42,530 nucleotides of DNA from a virus (lineage: Duplodnaviria; Caudoviricetes). Below, piece after piece: positions 7,472-40,220 of the stretch. Every line of letters starts with the position of its first letter. The first letter of the stretch is position 1. The DNA lies in IMG/VR virus record IMGVR_UViG_3300032277_002977, positions 1-42,530 of that record; one strand, written 5' to 3'. The notes beneath the pieces are model-generated. The model did not search any database, had not been told where the DNA came from, and saw only the letters and a list, made by a program, of their open reading frames with translations. The translations under genes were made by a program, and so were the position numbers.

Positions 7472-8986
7472 CTACCCCCACATCGTCAATTCAACTTCCG
7501 ACTGGGCGATATGCTCAACCAGTTCGACAACCAGAAAATTCTGACCAGTAGACAAACCAAACCGGGAATGGGAAACCCTGCAAGTCTCGCCGAGATCGTG
7601 GGCAAGAACCTGTGTTTTGACCACAACACCGACAACATCACGGGCGACCTTGTAGAGATCGAACTGCCGCGCCACTTCCGTTTCAGCTTCCGTCTTGTCA
7701 ACCAGCAAACCAGGCCGAGGGTTAGGGTCGAGGGCATTGGGTTGCCCACCCTTGCCGACACCGTCAAGTTTGATATCTGCATCGGACGCGCTGACCCGTC
7801 GGTATTCCTCACCAACAAAGTCCTTATAGGCATCTGTCGCCGTTGCATCCAGAACGTCCGATAGCTGCACCGTCCACGCCCGCCCGTAGTCAATCCTGCG
7901 TCGCCAGTGCACCGGTCCGAACGACACCACGTTAAGCGAATTATCCAGCATATCCGCCGTATCAATTTCAAAATCTGCTGTCACTGCCGGTTCAACAACC
8001 TGCCCGACCATCAATAACCCGGCACGGTTAAAGGTATAAAACGCCCCAACCGTGTCACAGATATCATCCAGAAGATCGAGCAACCCGGTCGCCGCCGTGC
8101 GGGAATAATATCCAATCGCCGCCGGTGCCGCGCTGTTCAGCGCCGTGAAACTGGCAGCATCCAGATCAGCCGGAACCAGACCGCCAAAGTCCGTCACCAG
8201 CCGTTCGACAATATCGGCCACCGTCGATACATATGCCCCACTGGTTTTTGATCCTTTAATATCCGCCGTAATCAACCCGGTTGGCGACGCCGTCAGGGTG
8301 ATCCGCCCATTCACCAGATCGACCGTGTAATTCGTCGTTAGTGTCAGTAACTTGCCATTGTCATAAACCGCCGTCACCGCTTCGATCTGACCGTCATGAA
8401 CGTCATAGACGTTGCTGCTTGAATCGACCCGCACCGGGGTGATGTTCAGACACTCTCCGAATGCAACCGGTTTTGGTTTATCTTTCAGGTCATCCCCGCC
8501 TTCGTTACCCCCCGTCCCCGCATAAAGCGTATCCTGTAGCAGTTTATCCAGCAGCGACTGTTTATCCCTGAGATCCAGAACATATCCATCCTTGGCCGAC
8601 ACCAGCGACCCCGACACCCCGTCGAAAATGATCTGGAAATCCGCATAAGCCGACCCCTTCAGGCCCGCTTTGATCACCACCGCCCGCCCGTCCCAGTGAA
8701 GATTGCGCCAGTCATCAATCTCACCCATATTCATAACGCGCAAATCCCCCATGTCCGGCAACGACCGACCGCCCAACTGACCGGGTTTGAACATCGACCG
8801 CCTGAACGTCAGATCGCGGGTCAACCGACCCTCGAAATAGGTGTTTGCCGGGGTTTCCGCCGGTCCTGTAACAAACCCCGCCGTCGCCACATATTTTGTC
8901 ACCACCGCTCCGGTGGACGGATCATAGGGCGACAGTTCCGCCACATAGACCCGGTGGGCGGTGATGTCGGTGAACACATCAGCCAT
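7472..8986 (-). CDS. Tail tip / baseplate hub protein
   Basis: 'YAGTGGNEGGDDLKDKPKPVAFGECLNITPV' motif; immediately after the tape measure gene. Confidence 0.75.
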   Translation of the reverse strand: MADVFTDITAHRVYVAELSPYDPSTGAVVTKYVATAGFVTGPAETPANTYFEGRLTRDLTFRRSMFKPGQLGGRSLPDMGDLRVMNMGEIDDWRNLHWDGRAVVIKAGLKGSAYADFQIIFDGVSGSLVSAKDGYVLDLRDKQSLLDKLLQDTLYAGTGGNEGGDDLKDKPKPVAFGECLNITPVRVDSSSNVYDVHDGQIEAVTAVYDNGKLLTLTTNYTVDLVNGRITLTASPTGLITADIKGSKTSGAYVSTVADIVERLVTDFGGLVPADLDAASFTALNSAAPAAIGYYSRTAATGLLDLLDDICDTVGAFYTFNRAGLLMVGQVVEPAVTADFEIDTADMLDNSLNVVSFGPVHWRRRIDYGRAWTVQLSDVLDATATDAYKDFVGEEYRRVSASDADIKLDGVGKGGQPNALDPNPRPGLLVDKTEAETEVARQFDLYKVARDVVGVVVKTQVLAHDLGETCRVSHSRFGLSTGQNFLVVELVEHIAQSEVELTMWG

Positions 8987-24279: not shown

Positions 24280-24384
24280 CGCGTGCAACGAAGTCGTTGC
24301 ACGTTGCATCAAAATTCAAAACTCCAAACTAGAAAACCCAAACCCCTCTGCCACCCGTATATATTTTAGGTCTAGGAAGGACCC
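24280..24384 (-). promoter_or_regulatory. Lambda-like cos packaging site (cosQ-cosN-cosB-like)
   Basis: Minus strand reads GGGTCCT(24384-24378)..TACGGGTGGCAGAGGGGTTTGGGTTTT, paralleling lambda GGGTCCT..TACGGGGCGGCGACCTCGCGGGTTTT; TGCAAC/GTTGCA repeats at 24283-24308. Confidence 0.7.
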
Positions 24385-25164: not shown

Positions 25165-25309
25165 TCAAACTCCCCAAACACCCCTCATATACGCGTCACC
25201 TCTGGTGCTTTGTCGACTGGATGAAAGGTCGCGTGCTGCACCTTTTGATAGATATTAAAAATTAATGTATTCAATTAGTAGTATGTCCCGGACCTGCATC
25301 GCAATATTA

Positions 25310-25332
25310 ATAAATTCTTTGTAAGAATTTAT
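25310..25332. promoter_or_regulatory. Perfect 10-bp inverted repeat, candidate operator
   Basis: ATAAATTCTT-TGT-AAGAATTTAT in an AT-rich intergenic region. Confidence 0.5.
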
Positions 25333-25350
25333 ATTATCAACGTCTTGTTA

Positions 25351-26100
25351 TCATGGTGGAAATTTCTTGATTGAACGAAGCTTGCATACCTTCAACGCAG
25401 GCGTTTCATCCAGCATCTGCACAAAGACCTGGACCCAGACCAGTTCATTGTTCGGTCCATTGATTTCCATTTGCGTATCAATCGGCCCGCCACCAACACC
25501 CATCCGATAGAACGATTGCGTCGCCTCCTTCTGGGCCGCCTCCAAACCGCCCCGGCGGTGCAGGTTATCGGCGTGCGCCAAATCAAAGATACTGTCGCCG
25601 ACCGCCAGATACCTGAACTCATCCGTGAACGGCTTTTCAATCCGGGTAACGATGTTGCGCTCATTGTAACAAAAGGCGGTTGTATAATTATGTTCAGCCG
25701 ACTCCCACACCTTGAATTCCGGGGTGTTGGCAATCGCCTGCCGGGCATGAACATGACCCAGATAGTTGTCATAATAGGCCGCCGACAGGGTGATCGGCCC
25801 GCGCGGATGGTGTTTGTCCACATACTCAAGCAGGTTTTCGCCGATCAGCGCATTAATCACCGCCATCGCCGCCGGAAGATGGTTATACGAATAGGGGATC
25901 AGCGTTTCCGCCAAAGGTTTGCGATACAGCGTTTCCCCCTTCAGGTTTTTGTATAGCGCCACATCCAGAACTTCGATGACACCGCGCCGACCCGCCAACG
26001 CCGGATAGCGCTGAACGAACACCCGATCCATCTTGAGCTGTTCGGCGCGAACGTTCAGATGCTGTTTGACTTCCGGCAGGTTCTTGACGAAATCATTCAT
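25351..26100 (-). CDS. Putative one-component regulator: N-terminal winged-helix-like domain plus C-terminal PAS domain
   Basis: 'CYNERNIVTRIEKPFTDEFRY.AVGDSIFDLAHADN' and 'MEINGPNNELVWVQV' match the PAS/PAC consensus by eye; 'GETLYRKPLAETL...VINALIGENLLEY...PITLS' is MarR-like. Confidence 0.6.
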   Translation of the reverse strand: MNDFVKNLPEVKQHLNVRAEQLKMDRVFVQRYPALAGRRGVIEVLDVALYKNLKGETLYRKPLAETLIPYSYNHLPAAMAVINALIGENLLEYVDKHHPRGPITLSAAYYDNYLGHVHARQAIANTPEFKVWESAEHNYTTAFCYNERNIVTRIEKPFTDEFRYLAVGDSIFDLAHADNLHRRGGLEAAQKEATQSFYRMGVGGGPIDTQMEINGPNNELVWVQVFVQMLDETPALKVCKLRSIKKFPP

Positions 26101-26810
26101 CACCCCGCCTCCGCCAGCAGGCCGCCACGAACAGAATTCATCAGATCATCATAGGTCATCCAGCACATCCAGGCCTCTAGCGGCACATCCCGGCTTGGCC
26201 GCACCCAGTTAACCACATCAGGTTCAAAGTGCCGGTATCCATAGGAAATTATCGTACCGTTATTGACCAGCGGCGGGTAACCGAAACCATAAATGAAATC
26301 CGGCTGGAAATGGGCCAGCGCCAGACTGGTGGCAAGTTTGGGCAGCAACCCGGCAAGGCCTTTACCCCGGAATCCGTTATCTCCGGGTTTCAGCCATATT
26401 TCCCCATGGAAACACACCCGACCGGTTATGGTTTTTGCAATATGGGCAAAGGACCGGCAGTTCTCCCCAGGTTCCGCGCTGACCGAAGGATCAAAATAAA
26501 ACGCCTGCAACGTCTCAAGCTCCCGCGCCAGATTTGTCCCGGTCAGATCATCCAGCCGCACCGCCTGCAAATGCACGACATCGCCCGCCTTGTCGGTGCC
26601 CTTGATCCAGAACCCGTTGTCCGGCCCGATATGGTGATGCAGCGGATTAAACATCGCCGTTGGATAAGGTTTGTCTTCCAGGGTTTCACATAACCGCACC
26701 AGATACCCAAAATCGGTTCGCAGCTCCAACGTAATTCCGGCGTCGTTAATCAGTCTCTCCAGCTGTCCGACCCGTCTGGACACGTCAAGGGGGTTAATTA
26801 CATCGCTCAT
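26100..26810 (-). CDS. GNAT-fold acyltransferase-like protein
   Basis: Acyl-CoA-binding motif A-like 'GEIWL..FRGKGLAGLL' and motif B-like 'SYGY'; TGATG-coupled to the PAS regulator. Confidence 0.6.
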   Translation of the reverse strand: MSDVINPLDVSRRVGQLERLINDAGITLELRTDFGYLVRLCETLEDKPYPTAMFNPLHHHIGPDNGFWIKGTDKAGDVVHLQAVRLDDLTGTNLARELETLQAFYFDPSVSAEPGENCRSFAHIAKTITGRVCFHGEIWLKPGDNGFRGKGLAGLLPKLATSLALAHFQPDFIYGFGYPPLVNNGTIISYGYRHFEPDVVNWVRPSRDVPLEAWMCWMTYDDLMNSVRGGLLAEAG

Positions 26811-26904
26811 AATCAGGCTCCGCTTTACTATTTCTGTGAGAATTAAATATGGGCAAACCAGTTAATCATTTAACCCGAATCCTCTCAACCCTGCCGAAAT
26901 TACC

Positions 26905-27136
26905 GAACTGTCCAAACTATCCGAACCCTCAGAAACTATCAGTTTTATAACTCCTTGTTTTTCTTGTCTTTTTAGAGGGTTCTGATAGTTCAGATAGTTT
27001 CCCCGACCCGCTCATGCACGCGCCCACGCACATACGTGCCACCTTGGGGAAACTATCTGAACTATCTGGACTATCAGAAAACCGTTTGATTTCAACATCT
27101 TAAAACACCTGATAGTTTCAGATAGTCCAGATAGTT
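26905..27136. repeat. Iteron array, likely replication origin
   Basis: About 11 copies of AACTATC(T/A/C)G in alternating direct and inverted clusters around AT-rich spacers, directly downstream of the helicase gene. Confidence 0.8.
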
Positions 27137-27189
27137 TGAGACCTCTCAACACAACATCTTGGGTCTGAATGTAGCAATATGCATATTCA

Positions 27190-28728
27190 TCACAACGGCC
27201 CGTCATCCGGCGGCGGCTCCGGCCCGACCGGCCCGGACCCATTTACCGCCCCGTCTTCAATCCCCGAAAACGCCTCGATCACCTCATCAAGCAGTTCAAG
27301 CCGGTAGGTCACGTACCCCGTTGACTTGCTGGTCTCCAGCCCCTTGTCTTTAAGGATTTTGCCGAACCGCGTGATGTTCCCAGCATCCAGCCCGCTGGCC
27401 TTGCACCACAACTCATAGGCCGCATAGATTTTCCCGGACCTCAGCCATCTGGTGGTTTGCCGGGACGTGCATTCCGTCAGGAAATTACCCACCGGATCAC
27501 TTTCCGCCCGGTAACTGTCGGTCGCATCCCGCACCGCTTGGGGCACCCGCAACCCGACCTCCTGCCAGTCCTCATACCCGGCGATCAGCCAGTTCAGAAT
27601 GCCCGGCAGCTCGTCCGCCAACGCCGCAAACAACGGCCCCACATCGGCCTCATCCACCTTGCCCTTAAACTCAACCATCAACAATCTGCGCCAGATGCCG
27701 TCATCACCACCCCGGATACTCGGTTTCGGGTTAAACGACAGCACCAGTTTGAACTGCGGATAAAACTCGAAAAACGGCTCGTTCAAATTTCGCGCCGTCA
27801 TCGCTTCGCCGCCGGTCATCGTCTTGATCATCGACTCCGCCAACCGCGACCCGGTCTCCGGTTCAGACGCCCGCACGAACCGCGCCCCCGGCAACCGCGC
27901 AATATCGGGCGTCGCATCGCCGCCGCCGCCCCGGTCATTATGCAACAGAGACCGGAACGGCAGTCCCATGGCATAATCCCCCAAAAGTTTCGCCAGGCAT
28001 TCCAGCAACGATGATTTGCCGTTGCCGCCATCGCCGTGCAACAGCAACACAACCTGCTCCGTCGTGTGCCCGGTCATCATGTAACCGAAAAACCGCTGAA
28101 TAAATTCGCGGACGTCCCGGTCCGGCAAAATCTTCTCAAGAAACGCATCGAAAACCGGACACCCCGCCTCCGGCACATAACGCACCGGGGCCAGCCGCGT
28201 CAGCAGATCATCGCGATGATGACTGCGGATTTCGGTCTTCGGTCCCAACACCAAGGTGCCATTTTCAACGCACAGTAAATCCGCCAACTGATCAAGATCA
28301 TCCACCTTGCACGTCAGATGTGGAGCCGCCTCACGCTGCATGGCCGCAATCGGCCCGGAGTTTCCCGACGTCTTGGCAAACTTTCTAAGCGCCGCAATCC
28401 ACTCAACCTGATCACCGGCGTTTTCCTTCAGCCACTTGGCCTCCGTCCGGATCAGCCGCGCCGTTTCCTGCGCCAGTATCTGGGCCATGCGCGGCCCATC
28501 GTCTTCCGACCAGCGCCGCCCGTCAAACCAGAACCAGCCCCGCCCCGGCACATACATCAGGTCTTCGCCAAACCGCACCTGCAACCGCTCGGCGTTACCC
28601 AGATCGTTCAAGGACTTCCGCGCACATGTGCCGTCGACGGTGCCGTCAAAGTCGTCGCCGATATCCAGCACGAACTCAGGGACCCCGGTTTTTTTCTTTT
28701 TCTTCTCATCCTTAAACGGCGTCGGCAT
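27190..28728 (-). CDS. P4-family/D5-type SF3 helicase (no primase domain evident)
   Basis: 'NDLGNAERL', 'WFDGRRW', Walker A 'GDGGNGKS' and 'DDGIWRRL' motifs. Confidence 0.93.
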   Translation of the reverse strand: MPTPFKDEKKKKKTGVPEFVLDIGDDFDGTVDGTCARKSLNDLGNAERLQVRFGEDLMYVPGRGWFWFDGRRWSEDDGPRMAQILAQETARLIRTEAKWLKENAGDQVEWIAALRKFAKTSGNSGPIAAMQREAAPHLTCKVDDLDQLADLLCVENGTLVLGPKTEIRSHHRDDLLTRLAPVRYVPEAGCPVFDAFLEKILPDRDVREFIQRFFGYMMTGHTTEQVVLLLHGDGGNGKSSLLECLAKLLGDYAMGLPFRSLLHNDRGGGGDATPDIARLPGARFVRASEPETGSRLAESMIKTMTGGEAMTARNLNEPFFEFYPQFKLVLSFNPKPSIRGGDDGIWRRLLMVEFKGKVDEADVGPLFAALADELPGILNWLIAGYEDWQEVGLRVPQAVRDATDSYRAESDPVGNFLTECTSRQTTRWLRSGKIYAAYELWCKASGLDAGNITRFGKILKDKGLETSKSTGYVTYRLELLDEVIEAFSGIEDGAVNGSGPVGPEPPPDDGPL

Positions 28729-28912
28729 CCTCGCCCTTTCCCGGTTCAACATCCCGGTTGTGGTGGCTCAAAACCTCACACAGCATCATCCCAACCGCCT
28801 GCAACTGCCCGCCGATGCGCTGCAATTCGCTGGCGGTCTCGATCAGCGCCAAACCTAAATCCTTATTTTCACCCCGTGCGGTATCATCCTCTGAAACAGC
28901 GCCCGACATCAC
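28712..28912 (-). CDS. Hypothetical protein
   Basis: 66 aa, overlaps both neighbours. Confidence 0.55.
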   Translation of the reverse strand: MMSGAVSEDDTARGENKDLGLALIETASELQRIGGQLQAVGMMLCEVLSHHNRDVEPGKGEDADAV

Positions 28913-29712
28913 GCCACCTCCGGCAACGCATGCCAGTCCTCATCCTCGGCAATCATCACCTCGGCCCGCGCCGGAGGCGGCGTCGTGCGTTTCATCGCCG
29001 CATCCACGATGGTCGCGTGATCCCGGTCATCACAGATGATTTCGGGGACGCCCCGCAGCACCTCGCGCAGTACCATTTCCTTGTTTTCGAGATCCGGCGC
29101 GATCAGCACCGCCCCCCGGCAACCGCCCTTCAACCAGTTGAGCGGTGTTGAAAACAACCGCAGCGGCCCCGGCTTTGTATCCTCAGTACCCCCCGGCCAA
29201 TCATCTCCAGATACACCAACGCCCAGCGCCCGGTTGACTTCCCATTCGCCGAGCCAGTTTACCCCGCCTTTCCCGCACCAGCGCTGGCCACCGTTTCTCA
29301 TATACCAGCGCGCCGGGTCGCGGGCATCGAACGCCAGCAGATCAAGCAGCGCCGGTCGGGTTCGATAAAACGTGTCATAAACCGAATGCAGCCCGGACCA
29401 CACACCCAGGATAATCGCCTCGAAATCCCGACCGTCATCCAGCGCGCCCGGAAGATACGTCGGATCATCCCCGTCATGGCCGGGCCACACCCGCGCCACG
29501 CCCCAGCCGCCCGCCGCCAACCGCGAAGCGTTGGTGATACCCTGAACCTGCGTCAGCCAGCATTGTTGTTTCCACGACAGGGCGACCTCCGCCTTGTCCA
29601 ACTCCAAGTGCAGGTCGCGCACCCGGCATCGCGGGCAACTGGCGTCCGTGCGATGCGCCGTATCCAGAAACCGGTTGCGGTCGCGAAGCCGCTGGCGAGC
29701 CTGCACCGTCAT
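28909..29712 (-). CDS. Hypothetical replication-associated protein (possibly primase-derived)
   Basis: Upstream of a primase-less helicase; CxxC near the N-terminus; 'LRLFSTPLNWL..GCRGAVL' motif. Confidence 0.55.
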   Translation of the reverse strand: MTVQARQRLRDRNRFLDTAHRTDASCPRCRVRDLHLELDKAEVALSWKQQCWLTQVQGITNASRLAAGGWGVARVWPGHDGDDPTYLPGALDDGRDFEAIILGVWSGLHSVYDTFYRTRPALLDLLAFDARDPARWYMRNGGQRWCGKGGVNWLGEWEVNRALGVGVSGDDWPGGTEDTKPGPLRLFSTPLNWLKGGCRGAVLIAPDLENKEMVLREVLRGVPEIICDDRDHATIVDAAMKRTTPPPARAEVMIAEDEDWHALPEVA

Positions 29713-30491
29713 ACCGCCACCCCGAACAGGCCGATGTCCAATTCACCCCTGATTTCACGCAGCCGCCGACACGCCGTCTCGTAAATCGCCGCGTCCTTTT
29801 CAATGCCGATGAACCGCCGCCCCTCTTTCAGCGCCGCCACCCCGGTCGACCCCGACCCCATGAACGGGTCCAGAACCAGATCGCCCGGTTGTGAGGATTG
29901 GCGGATGTAGTTCGCCATCAAACGCCACGGCTTCTGGGTCTTGTGGCGGCTGTCTGCCCCGCGCGGGGCGCGCATCCTGATCGTCTGTTGCTGCGACGGG
30001 TCATTGATGGTCCGCGCCCGACCCTTCCAGCAGTACAGCACGAATTCATTGTTTTTCATGTAAAACTTGTTCGCCGTCGGCGATATCTTGTCCCAAGGCA
30101 GCAGATTATGATGTTTGAAGCCCACCGCCATCGCCGCGTTCCAGCAGGGGAAAACCTCCTTGTCGTTGGCCATAAAATAGGCGTCGGCGTCGGCCTTCAG
30201 CGCCGCAAAGGCCAGCCCCATCCAGTCGGCCCATTTCACATCGCAGAGCACAATATCGCCGTCGTTGGCGTAGGTCGCCGCATCGAACTTGCCGCGCATG
30301 GGAATTTGAGTTTTTGAGGGCTTGCCGACCCCGCCGGATGTCAGCTTGTACGGCGCATCGACGGCCAGCAGATCGGCCTTTTCATCAAGCCCCGGCAGAA
30401 CCTCCAGACAGTCGCCCAGATAGAGTGTCGCGCCGCCAATTGTTTGGCATGGAATGGATGACTCGATCTGTTCAACCCGCGCCCCGCTCAT
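29709..30491 (-). CDS. N6/N4 DNA methyltransferase (beta class)
   Basis: 'LYLGDCLEVL', motif IV 'DAPY', 'HKTQKP' and motif I 'VLDPFMGSGSTG'. Confidence 0.92.
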   Translation of the reverse strand: MSGARVEQIESSIPCQTIGGATLYLGDCLEVLPGLDEKADLLAVDAPYKLTSGGVGKPSKTQIPMRGKFDAATYANDGDIVLCDVKWADWMGLAFAALKADADAYFMANDKEVFPCWNAAMAVGFKHHNLLPWDKISPTANKFYMKNNEFVLYCWKGRARTINDPSQQQTIRMRAPRGADSRHKTQKPWRLMANYIRQSSQPGDLVLDPFMGSGSTGVAALKEGRRFIGIEKDAAIYETACRRLREIRGELDIGLFGVAV

Positions 30492-31677: not shown

Positions 31678-31943
31678 CATGCGGCTTCCTTACCAAGAAA
31701 CCCACCAGACGCCGCGAGTCGGGCCAACAGGTGCAGGGTAATGCTGTCAATCCCCCGCGCCGACGAACCATTAACCAACGCGCTCCAGATATCTCGATCC
31801 CGCGACCGCGCCGGAATGCTGTTGTGATGTCGCCAACTGCCGACGGTGCCCACAGGCACTTTGACGTCGTGCGCCAGCGCTTCATAAGACGGCCAGCAGT
31901 CAATCAGATCGCGAAAAGTTTTGATGGTGGGTTGGTCAGCCAT
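31677..31943 (-). CDS. cro: Cro-like HTH regulator
   Basis: 'DLIDCWPSYEALAHDVKVPVGTVGSWRHHNSIP'; divergent from the repressor. Confidence 0.8.
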   Translation of the reverse strand: MADQPTIKTFRDLIDCWPSYEALAHDVKVPVGTVGSWRHHNSIPARSRDRDIWSALVNGSSARGIDSITLHLLARLAASGGFLGKEAA

Positions 31944-31955
31944 AACTCAACAAAT

Positions 31956-32023
31956 ATTGATATTTTCAATTTATGTCAAGATGAAATTGATTTCATCAAT
32001 TTTCATAACCTTGATATGGCAAG
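31956..32023. promoter_or_regulatory. OR-like operators and PR promoter
   Basis: ATTGA-N5-TCAAT palindromes at 31956-31970 and 31986-32000, degenerate copy near 32010-32023; TTGACA on the minus strand at 31979-31974. Confidence 0.8.
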
Positions 32024-32064
32024 GAAAACTGCCAAAATTAGTATTATTCCGCCACAGGAAACAC

Positions 32065-32790
32065 ATGATGAATTTTAATTCCACTGCTGAACGGTTGAAA
32101 TTGGCGCGCACATGCGCCGGATTCCGCACCGCCAAGGAATTCGCGGACAAGCACGACATACCCCAGCCGACCTACGCCCAGTACGAAGGCACCGGCAAGT
32201 CAGGGCGGGAATTGACACTAAACACAGCCCGCGAATATGCCGCGCATCTTGGCAATTGCTCCGCCGCATGGCTGTTGACCGGCGAGGGAGAGGCACCCGA
32301 ACAAAAAGACCCAGCACCGACGGCAGCCCAGAAAGAACGTAGCGAAGCAAAAACGGCACTTGAAAAGGCCATCACCAAAGACCCGGATCACCCGCAAAAT
32401 AACCGTGATAAAAAATTCCTGACCGAACTGCGCGAGGAGCAGGCCACCTTCGAAGGCCCGGACAACGCCGATGAACTGCTGAAGGCCCTGTATCCCGCCC
32501 ATCCCCGCGCCGCTTGGATCAAGGCCGGGTCCATGGCGCTGAACCTGCGCGGCATTCTGCCCGGTGACTATCTTGTTTATGACCCGGACATAACCTTCCG
32601 CCCCGGCGTCGATGTGGTCCTACAAGTCGCCGACCCCCAGACCGGCAGCGCAAAAACCCTGCTCCGCCATTTCACCGGCGCAAGTTTTACTGGCATGACC
32701 AGTCTGTCAAAAATCCCTGAAACCGAATATGCCCCTGACCACATGACCGTCTACGGCGTCATTGTCCGGGTCTACCGGGAAAGTTCTTGA
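32065..32790 (+). CDS. cI: CI-like repressor (XRE HTH plus degenerate S24 domain)
   Basis: 'ERLKLAR..AGFRTAKEFA...TYAQYE', 'AAWLLTGEG'; C-terminal 'GSM..GILPGDYLVYDP' and 'VYGVIV'. Confidence 0.88.
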   Translation: MMNFNSTAERLKLARTCAGFRTAKEFADKHDIPQPTYAQYEGTGKSGRELTLNTAREYAAHLGNCSAAWLLTGEGEAPEQKDPAPTAAQKERSEAKTALEKAITKDPDHPQNNRDKKFLTELREEQATFEGPDNADELLKALYPAHPRAAWIKAGSMALNLRGILPGDYLVYDPDITFRPGVDVVLQVADPQTGSAKTLLRHFTGASFTGMTSLSKIPETEYAPDHMTVYGVIVRVYRESS

Positions 32791-33349: not shown

Positions 33350-34198
33350 ATGCCAACCCAAACAATCACAACCCACCGTCAACAAGTCGACAACCTGATC
33401 AGCCGTGGCGCGCTGTTTGTCATCAATCACAGCGGCGGCAAGGATAGCCAGGCAATGGATGCCGTTTTGCGGAAAATTGTCCCAGCCGCCCAGATCGTTC
33501 GGGTTCATTGTGATCTTGGTGACGTTGAGTGGATGGGCGTGAAAGAACACATCAGCGCCAACATCAACGGAGCCGACCTCCATCTGGCTCATGCCATCTA
33601 CAAGGACGGATCACCGAAAACCTTTCTCAACATGGTCGCTAATCGTCACCAGAAAAATCTGGAAAAGGGCAAGAATGTTTCGCCATGGCCATCAAGCGGT
33701 TGCCGGGAATGCACCAGTGATCTGAAAACCGGTCCCGGCAACAAAGTTATCCGCCGCCTGTCCAATGAAACGGGGCGTAAGATCATCGTTTCGTGTTTTG
33801 GTTTCCGTGCCGAGGAAAGTGACCGCCGCGCTGCCAAGGTCCAACTGGGACTGGACGCCAAGAACTGCACCGCCGGTCGGGAATGGTACGAATTTTCCCC
33901 CATCCATGACCTGACCACTGAACAGGTGTTTCAGGTGATCGCGCAAGCCGGTCAGAAACCGCACTGGGCCTATCAACGCAATGACCGTTTATCCTGCGTC
34001 TTTTGTGTCTTCGGCAGCTTAGGTGACCTGCGCCACGGCGCGGAACAGCGCCCGGAACTTTATCGCCAATACGTCGAACTAGAACATGCCACCGGCAAGA
34101 CCATCCGCCACGGCAAAACCCTGGAACAGGTCACCGGAATCTATCTGAACCCGTTGGCACCTGCCAACCATTTGGCATGGGCCAAAATAGCCGCGTGA
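33350..34198 (+). CDS. PAPS-reductase-family (PP-loop) protein
   Basis: 'HSGGKDS', 'RECTSDLKTGP', 'GFRAEES.RR' and 'RLSCVFC' motifs. Confidence 0.88.
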   Translation: MPTQTITTHRQQVDNLISRGALFVINHSGGKDSQAMDAVLRKIVPAAQIVRVHCDLGDVEWMGVKEHISANINGADLHLAHAIYKDGSPKTFLNMVANRHQKNLEKGKNVSPWPSSGCRECTSDLKTGPGNKVIRRLSNETGRKIIVSCFGFRAEESDRRAAKVQLGLDAKNCTAGREWYEFSPIHDLTTEQVFQVIAQAGQKPHWAYQRNDRLSCVFCVFGSLGDLRHGAEQRPELYRQYVELEHATGKTIRHGKTLEQVTGIYLNPLAPANHLAWAKIAA

Positions 34199-39354: not shown

Positions 39355-39537
39355 ATGACTTTAAAAAGAGGTCGAGACCTCACACGAGACGAGTTTTTGG
39401 AAATTAAAGGCGACCGCAAACCCGATGATGAAACCCACGATGCAGAGAGTGCAATGCTGTACTGGAATATTGACGGGAAGACGTACGTTGAACAGCAGCA
39501 CGATATTGGCGGCTGCGAATGGTTTGTAGCGGAATAG
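39355..39537 (+). CDS. Hypothetical protein
   Basis: 60 aa, GAGGGG upstream. Confidence 0.55.
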   Translation: MTLKRGRDLTRDEFLEIKGDRKPDDETHDAESAMLYWNIDGKTYVEQQHDIGGCEWFVAE

Positions 39538-39551
39538 AGGGCGTAACGAAA

Positions 39552-40220
39552 ATGACGAGATCGAGCGCGGAATATGAGATTAGAGAGGCGGTGGTCCAAA
39601 GGCTTCGTGACGAATTTCCGTCTGGTCGAATCATTCATGAACTGAACTGTGAGCAGGGCCGCAATAGAATTGATGTTGCGTGTGTTACCCCCTCACTAAT
39701 TATTTCTGTCGAAATCAAATCAGAAAAAGACACGCTGAAACGCCTTGCTGATCAAGTGAGGTCATTCCAATCGTGTAGTCACTTCGTCATTGTCGCTGCC
39801 CATGAGATTTTTTTTGAGGAATTCACTTACAACAATGGGCTTCCAGGATTTCGACCAAATACAGAGCTATTTAAGGGTAGCGAACAATCTCAGTTATGGC
39901 TTTACCCACGCCCAGACGAAGTTCTCAAAAATCGGTACCAGTGGCGCGCCCTTGATATTCGAAGAGCCGCATTGATCGATACTCGCGCATTAATGCGGCT
40001 GATGTGGGCCGATGAGCTTCGCATGACAGTTAGGAATGCCGGTATTCAGATAACCGGCATTGCCCGTGCTTCCAAAGATCATTTAACAAAAGTTCTGTGG
40101 TCACAGCTTACCGGCGCAGAAATCACAGCGGCCACTTGCAGGTACTTACGCGCCAGAGAGTTTGCGGAAGCAGACCCTCGCATCGGATTGGAACCGGCAC
40201 CTGACCTATTGGTGTCTTAA
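39552..40220 (+). CDS. PD-(D/E)xK nuclease-fold protein (MmcB/sce7726-like)
   Basis: 'IIHE..RIDVA..VEIKSEKDTLKRLADQ' motif. Confidence 0.75.
   Translation: MTRSSAEYEIREAVVQRLRDEFPSGRIIHELNCEQGRNRIDVACVTPSLIISVEIKSEKDTLKRLADQVRSFQSCSHFVIVAAHEIFFEEFTYNNGLPGFRPNTELFKGSEQSQLWLYPRPDEVLKNRYQWRALDIRRAALIDTRALMRLMWADELRMTVRNAGIQITGIARASKDHLTKVLWSQLTGAEITAATCRYLRAREFAEADPRIGLEPAPDLLVS

Follow-up and report, generated by a model that had tools for sequence, protein, structure and literature searches.

We analysed a virus sequence of 42,530 nucleotides (IMG/VR record IMGVR_UViG_3300032277_002977; the window hereafter means this whole stretch). It is a marine prophage of lambdoid type, in which family library searches recognized genes for terminase, tape measure, D5-type primase, a CI-like repressor and integrase, and it sits within a 956,587-base metagenomic contig (L119). 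Between an origin-like array and the late region lie two coupled genes, one for a GNAT-fold acyltransferase-like enzyme and one for a regulator with a MarR-like winged helix-turn-helix (wHTH) and a probable PAS domain. Together they represent an enzyme-sensor module that is real and undescribed, mostly of host origin, and present here as an unusual phage variant. Signalling by the pair is plausible, and control of late genes by it is a lead.

The enzyme and the regulator

A sequence-only reading of this DNA had pointed to a GNAT acyl-CoA-binding motif in the 236-aa protein. Indeed, FRGKGLAGLL (residues 147–156) and SYGY (residues 189–192) are present, and the fold was confirmed by an AlphaFold2 model (predicted local distance difference test, pLDDT, 92) and by Foldseek and VIA searches. 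Naa60, NatD and SpeG led the Foldseek list (E 1e-6 to GNATs), and VIA returned a flat, all-GNAT list (best Z 11.2, root-mean-square deviation 2.7, 138 residues aligned). Structure thus settles the fold and not the subfamily. The closest named Atlas structures were Acetyltransf_1 (TM 0.66) and FeeM clusters (TM 0.57–0.58). The enzyme matched no Pfam, PHROGs or PADLOC family, an NCBIfam search of both cassette proteins gave one chance-level match (E 0.13), and PDB sequence searches with the enzyme and partner alignments gave nothing useful. Its relatives comprised 30 proteins at 37–65% identity and large unnamed Pseudomonadota clusters in the Atlas.

Family profile and residue counts were taken from 174 members of the enzyme family. 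The profile aligned with FeeM over 156 columns (23%, E 9e-4) and with Acetyltransf_5 at 5.7%; Pfam PF21926 (FeeM) did not match the window enzyme, and its best match, in a distant relative, stayed below cut-off (E 0.076). The catalytic glutamate of FeeM, on strand beta4, is Glu95 (PMC4897644). In our low-probability FeeM alignment, the acidic column faces F134/Y, with the conserved E137 three residues on, and the FeeM profile is mixed at that column (D 9, S 4 and E 3 of 18). The CoA-binding motif A (R/Q-x-x-G-x-G/A) is intact (RGKGL, residues 148–152; RGKGLA, 148–153), and the family conserves H135-G136-E137-x-W139 on the central strand beta4. R148 was found in 168/174 members, G151 in 140/174, E137 in 145/174 and W139 in 170/174; given this conservation, the family looks catalytically constrained. 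Position 134 is taken up below; all other conserved positions checked are retained in the phage enzyme, which is probably active and acyl-CoA-using. Taken together, the enzyme is not a LuxI and is only loosely FeeM-like. As side observations, L081 has a 547-aa open reading frame with the enzyme at its C-terminus, and L204 carries two enzymes in tandem.

The regulator family counted four representatives among 1.84 billion proteins, the window's own included. A word-indexed search recovered only the protein itself, a search of viral contigs gave no relative, and among 301 genomes from the order a single one had a wHTH-PAS protein. Pfam (MarR included), PHROGs and PADLOC gave no match. The N-terminal half (about residues 1–128) modelled well: VIA aligned 121 residues to YusO (Z 9.2, root-mean-square deviation 3.1) and listed MarR proteins first, and the Atlas also gave a MarR-like fold (TM 0.63 by target). 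A MarR-like winged helix, which the sequence-only reading had placed there, is thus supported by the models, as a fold only. On the C-terminal half (about residues 129–250), Atlas features (0.91–0.92) put 10 of 10 named matches in one family or clan, and Atlas structural matches to PAS covered residues 137–249, so that this half is probably a PAS domain. We rate the wHTH as a good prediction and the PAS as a moderate one. This probable PAS domain is in tandem double copy in three relatives and single in the window's regulator. The pair is not of the LuxI/LuxR type, as the wHTH at the N-terminus of the partner is MarR-like and Pfam matched nothing in that protein.

The two reading frames are unbroken and coupled, and each has a good ribosome-binding site. 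The junction reads GGAGG-CGGG-GTGATG, and the enzyme stop TGA and the regulator ATG share one base (TGATG), as had been read from the letters. The regulator length of 250 aa given at that time holds for the GTG start; since 7 nt separate the Shine-Dalgarno sequence from the ATG that follows it, against just 4 nt for the GTG, 249 aa is likelier, and the database call (P0033) has 249 aa.

Genomic neighbourhoods and phage copies

The enzyme family is found mainly on chromosomes of marine Alphaproteobacteria. We fetched the best 80 of 123 genome loci and the best 80 of 159 metagenome loci, plus phage and plasmid records. A PAS-fold neighbour was present in 79 of the 80 genome loci, 78 times PAS_5-like and once (L004) of the window's type; the remaining locus was truncated at a contig end. 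An upstream LysR-HTH protein was found in 49 of the 80 and a convergent protein in 29, and the two share a C-terminal domain. This common domain scored 95.9% against the PAS_5 profile (controls, 0.3%), and the Pfam cut-off for PAS_5 was exceeded in L215 and L218. Among the 79 non-self metagenome loci, 67 had a PAS partner, 11 were truncated and one was without. In an even class-wide sample, the enzyme occurred in 27/401 genomes, and a PAS-type neighbour lay within 1.5 kb in 22 of the 30 loci fetched (of these, three duplicate other loci). The genomes carry 4–23 PAS_5 matches each, and chance adjacency would therefore be ~1% or less, by a rough hand estimate.

The output part of the partner varied and the PAS stayed: LysR-HTH, an unnamed N-terminal domain, none at all, XRE-like or MarR-like. 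The PAS gene was convergent with the enzyme in 69 loci, and the ends of the convergent genes overlapped in 22 of 26 loci, as in esaI/esaR-type pairs. An XRE gene lay within 2.5 kb in 59/80 genome loci, and a major facilitator superfamily (MFS) transporter followed the enzyme in 23 loci, seemingly one lineage. When the 80 genome loci were compared with the prophage genes, no structural, replication or integration match was found; besides generic LysE matches, the sole match was the HTH of L004 with CI. Judging from these gene contexts, phages did not invent the module, which for the most part is a cassette of host chromosomes. The conserved pairing for which a survey of prophages had been proposed exists, mostly on chromosomes, and the window's exact pair was found in no other phage by viral record searches. 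Other arrangements were seen as well. Two PAS genes stand in tandem in L121 and L193. The rhizobial plasmid loci L083–L086 (including pNGR234a, 227072–227821) hold a partner-less enzyme clade among insertion sequence elements, and two rhizobial plasmid enzyme loci lie near ATP-grasp or biotin-carboxylase-like genes.

The window's own PAS aligned neither to PAS_5 (0.4%) nor to the usual partner's domain (2.5%), and the sensor lineage thus appears to have been replaced with the pairing kept. In L004, a Rhodospirillales metagenome-assembled genome, an HTH gene, the enzyme (57%) and a wHTH-PAS-PAS gene (40%) all run in one direction; the canonical triad occurs elsewhere in the same genome, and cultured hosts that have it include Denitrobaculum tricleocarpae and Pelagibius. 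The HTH gene (7499–7987, + strand) stands directly upstream of the enzyme-regulator pair, with 47% identity over 77 aa to the N-terminus of the window's CI, a likeness that hints at a phage origin of that chromosomal copy. We infer two further co-occurrences of the window's pair, P0035 with P0023 and P0037 with P0017, solely because the contigs of each two are equally long.

Four phage records carry the enzyme: the window, Labrenzia phage vB_LagS-V1, L363 and L001. The PAS gene of vB_LagS-V1 and L363, convergent with the enzyme gene, stands behind a CI-like repressor in the immunity region; L001 has the enzyme without partner. The phage copies were scattered in the enzyme tree, two of them on long branches. 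The window enzyme fell within a clade of Rhodospirillales relatives (support 96 in a quick tree), whose other members of known context are all chromosomal, and from these sequences the cassette was likely captured from a Rhodospirillales host. A single origin of wHTH-PAS-paired enzymes was rejected (p-AU 0.003, for a group picked after the first tree). Since these enzymes do not group, the partner was either recruited twice or swapped later.

The cassette within the prophage

The main features of the cassette and its surroundings are collected in the table.

Features of the window in and around the cassette (strand given where assigned; nt, nucleotides)
Feature	Position	Strand	Remarks
Q-position gene, 198 aa	24568–25164	-	upstream of putative terminase small subunit; phrog_9306 match, E 3.7e-21
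AT-rich intergenic region, cassette to Q-position gene	25165–25350		no terminator-like site called
Perfect 10-3-10 palindrome, candidate operator	25310–25332		18 nt beyond regulator stop codon
Weak sigma70-like promoter	25333–25362	-	TTTCCA-18-GATAAT, 9/12; -10 abuts palindrome, faces Q-position gene
Regulator	25351–26103	-	250 aa from GTG at 26103, or 249 aa from ATG at 26100
GNAT-fold acyltransferase-like protein	26100–26810	-	236 aa; unnamed alphaproteobacterial family
AT-rich cassette leader	26811–26896		GGAG Shine-Dalgarno 7 nt before enzyme ATG
Origin-like array, direct and inverted repeats	26897–27138		downstream of primase gene
D5/P4-type primase-helicase	27190–28752	-	family library matches
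CI-like repressor	31921–32790	+	5 kb from cassette

The AT-rich flanks described by the sequence-only reading were found again, with GC contents of 37.6% (25165–25350), 30.6% (25230–25350) and 38.8% (26811–26890) against 48–67% in the tallied window genes; the cassette genes themselves (GC 0.54–0.55, third-position GC 0.62–0.65) are inside the phage-gene range. Its placement of the pair between a replication origin and a Q-like gene stood in part. The origin-like array and the D5-type primase are indeed upstream, but the Q label describes position only, as the protein had no Pfam or PDB match and phrog_9306, its sole family match, has no function attached; one relative of it was found. Apart from the cassette, the prophage has a cI/cro pair of its own.

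Within the window, the palindrome at 25310–25332 was unique at up to 3 mismatches. When 25165–25350 was shuffled 1000 times, an arm of 10 appeared once; in the window, perfect inverted repeats whose arms measure at least 9 number four. The adjoining promoter is not above chance alone (4 sites found vs 2.3 ± 1.6 expected); MarR-type repressors often bind just downstream of the -10 box. The palindrome did not recur near cI/cro, in L004 or in L082. As RNA, the intergenic region folded no better than shuffles (z 0.95), no CtrA-type TTAA-N7-TTAA box flanked the cassette, and the 5-4-5 inverted repeat of the leader (26861–26874) was at chance level, 420 of 1000 shuffles reaching it. A second perfect palindrome (10-2-10, 24282–24303) lies immediately upstream of the gene for the putative terminase small subunit and is a candidate packaging or late-promoter site.

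No related phages turned up via the Q-position gene and, with no empty site found in a related phage, the cassette can only be presumed to be an inserted accessory. A joint skipping the cassette was not seen in one DNA sequencing run, possibly the source run.

Several other genes of the prophage may be mentioned. A NERD-domain gene (39519–40220, +, GC 48%) matched PADLOC PDLC02989 'cll' (E 3e-9) beside the resolvase and integrase, and is possibly a defence accessory gene. A LysE-type exporter (512–1129, -) lies at the left end of the prophage; LysE homologues occurred in the enzyme's flanks in 14 host loci, which may be generic similarity. A Dam-like D12 methyltransferase (2175–2735, -) covers profile positions 1–121 of 253, possibly because of truncation or a frameshift, and a second methyltransferase lies at 29709–30491. 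A PAPS-reductase-like gene (33350–34198, +) has 47% identity to its counterpart directly adjoining the GNAT gene in vB_LagS-V1. Finally, a 112-aa gene (1–339, -) has what we take to be a HicB-like look.

Proposed signalling and its alternatives

The reading that we prefer, still tentatively though we regard it as a real possibility, is that of a host-derived make-and-sense module with LuxI/LuxR-like logic, carried as a prophage accessory. In such a module, the GNAT-fold enzyme would acylate a small amine from acyl-CoA, the predicted PAS of the partner would bind the acylated product, and ligand binding would switch the regulator's winged helix on or off DNA. The likeliest DNA target would be the palindrome at 25310–25332, through which the cassette would control the Q-position gene. 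We consider this last step unlikely; autoregulation or host targets are as plausible. We infer catalysis, a small-molecule product, its identity with the PAS ligand and diffusion between cells. The strongest argument for make-and-sense is evolutionary: the PAS neighbour is retained, and phages put the module behind a repressor. As the conserved enzyme keeps a PAS neighbour while output domain, gene order and PAS lineage change, a shared small ligand can be argued. Of the proposal that the pair makes and senses an acylated signal, the folds thus held and the enzyme-PAS co-occurrence fits a small-molecule link, but the enzyme is not a LuxI, one of the families named there, and its likeness to FeeM is loose.

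A number of results weigh against this reading. The best match of the enzyme family profile was generic GNAT (83%, over 66 columns around motif A); LuxI, as a 20-sequence profile, scored 0.4% over 35 columns, and there was no match to Pfam Autoind_synth, the family with the conserved R/F/W/E/D/D/R/E/R set. In the enzyme's PDB Foldseek list, FeeM ranked 16 and EsaI 46, and neither was in its VIA top 50. The phage copy has F134 where 151/174 members have Tyr (Phe in 9/174), and it stands on a longish tree branch. On the sensor side, the regulator's PAS half was mostly below pLDDT 50 in its own model, Foldseek matches to PAS (ARNT/HIF, FixL and a LuxR-family PAS) were weak (E 0.04–0.09), and PAS_4 scored 7.5%, so that the PAS-like C-terminus of the sequence-only reading is favoured by Atlas features and structure but not proven. 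A PAS partner was not detected in L001, L189, 8/30 class-sample loci and all 4 of the rhizobial plasmid loci looked at, from 29 records. The neighbourhood counts also overstate independence, because the loci are related to one another and 75 of these neighbours went into the partner profile. With regard to late control, the partnered phage copies elsewhere adjoin cI, not a late regulator, and L004 lacks the palindrome, its closest sequence differing at 6 positions.

Other roles have to be considered. The pair could sense and modify: the PAS regulator would detect an outside or host molecule, such as a toxin, a metabolite or a signal from another organism, and de-repress the GNAT, which would inactivate that molecule by acylation, to the benefit of host fitness. 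A MarR-like regulator next to a GNAT is a common detoxification pairing, the enzyme family keeps the canonical CoA-binding motif, and small-molecule and protein N-acetyltransferases lead its structural matches; the stand-alone rhizobial plasmid copies fit an enzyme useful by itself. The MFS transporter after the enzyme in 23 loci would point the same way, but these loci look like one lineage. Moreover, the PAS gene is convergent in 69 loci and not divergent, as is usual for inducible detoxification, some PAS partners stand alone without a DNA-binding part, and two phages have the module behind cI; we hold this role to be rather doubtful. Control at the protein level, in which the GNAT would acylate or bind a regulator (the PAS partner, an XRE protein or the phage repressor), or would sense acyl-CoA with little catalysis, needs no diffusible signal. 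It would suit the stand-alone PAS partners, which must work by protein contacts, as well as the XRE genes within 2.5 kb in 59/80 genome loci and the protein N-acetyltransferases Naa60 and NatD at the top of the Foldseek list. However, a swap to an unalignable PAS lineage is more easily explained if a small ligand is shared than if a protein interface has to be preserved, and the window's cassette is without XRE, which makes this explanation improbable in our view.

A toxin-antitoxin, abortive-infection or Mom-like DNA-modifying system, in which the partner would serve as antitoxin or trigger, seems very unlikely to us. The coupling of the two genes and their accessory-gene position would fit, as would the slot behind cI occupied by other phage copies, where lambda keeps rexAB, and tRNA-acetylating toxins are among the tied GNAT matches (VIA Z 9.5–10.6). 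Yet the enzyme is partner-less in several loci, type II toxin-antitoxin systems differ from the convergent layout and the stable single copies on chromosomes, and the enzyme's 236 aa compare with 154–180 residues for the matched toxin chains. PADLOC matched neither protein nor four relatives, though an uncatalogued system is still conceivable. We are equally sceptical that the cassette is a mere passenger, a host regulatory unit drifting in a prophage with no effect on phage or lysogen. Intact, coupled frames with good ribosome-binding sites, base composition inside the phage-gene range and the retention of the other conserved enzyme positions checked speak against drift; the F134 substitution with its longish branch, the single PAS against two in three relatives and the lack of another phage found with the exact pair speak for it.

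The make-and-sense reading can be taken further, to a form that is a long shot: a class-wide alphaproteobacterial signalling system, so far undescribed, with a non-LuxI synthase and PAS receptors, would have been captured by phages several times, and here the MarR-PAS protein would read the signal at the palindrome ahead of the late regulator, so that population density gates virion commitment after the start of replication and not at cI/cro.

The pairing had not been recognized as a described system by the sequence-only reading, and our literature search, thin on subscription journals, likewise found no published description of this pair. Several known systems come near it. FeeM has a similar size and GNAT layout, aligns weakly over full length with the family profile, as given above, and is the nearest named full-length Atlas structural family after generic GNAT; the window enzyme differs in having no Pfam FeeM match, a canonical RGxGL CoA motif and PAS regulators as partners. 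The PAS_5 (PF07310) proteins of Alphaproteobacteria resemble the enzyme family's usual partner, but not the window's own PAS. In VqmA, which reads a host autoinducer, the PAS domain comes first and a LuxR-type HTH follows. The VqmA(Phage) of vibriophage VP882 (PMC8284805, PMC12802170) is a phage-borne PAS with a DNA-binding domain, as our regulator is predicted to be; in the window, however, a wHTH is followed by the probable PAS, and an enzyme is co-encoded. Qst of Pseudomonas phage LUZ19 is another phage acyltransferase touching quorum sensing, but it belongs to a lytic phage, acts on host PqsD and has no receptor partner (10.1101/577908). Finally, tested xre-luxR-luxI switches are known from Roseobacter prophages (Bunsick et al., bioRxiv 2026, PMC13345283). 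These hth/xre-luxR-luxI switches share with the window an alphaproteobacterial prophage, a GNAT-fold enzyme beside a regulator that binds a ligand, or in the window is predicted to do so, and an exchangeable cassette; the relatives behind the repressor in vB_LagS-V1 and L363 have the same layout, and L004 has the order HTH-enzyme-receptor. In contrast, the window enzyme is not a LuxI, its receptor is not a LuxR and its cassette is without XRE. The xre-luxR-luxI module also replaces cI/cro at the divergent lysis/lysogeny promoters, whereas the window cassette lies between origin and late region, with its own CI-like gene 5 kb off. The words 'GNAT' and 'acyltransferase' do not occur in PMC13345283.

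What the window adds is a candidate operator, a rare MarR-PAS partner and a location away from the immunity region. This copy joins the predicted sensor and DNA-binding domains in a single protein, with the candidate operator adjoining, which makes it useful. That one sensor lineage could take the place of another beside a conserved enzyme already argues for a small ligand common to both. If the pair does make and sense a signal, it would bring a new autoinducer chemistry and a new receptor class to marine Alphaproteobacteria and to phage decision-making.
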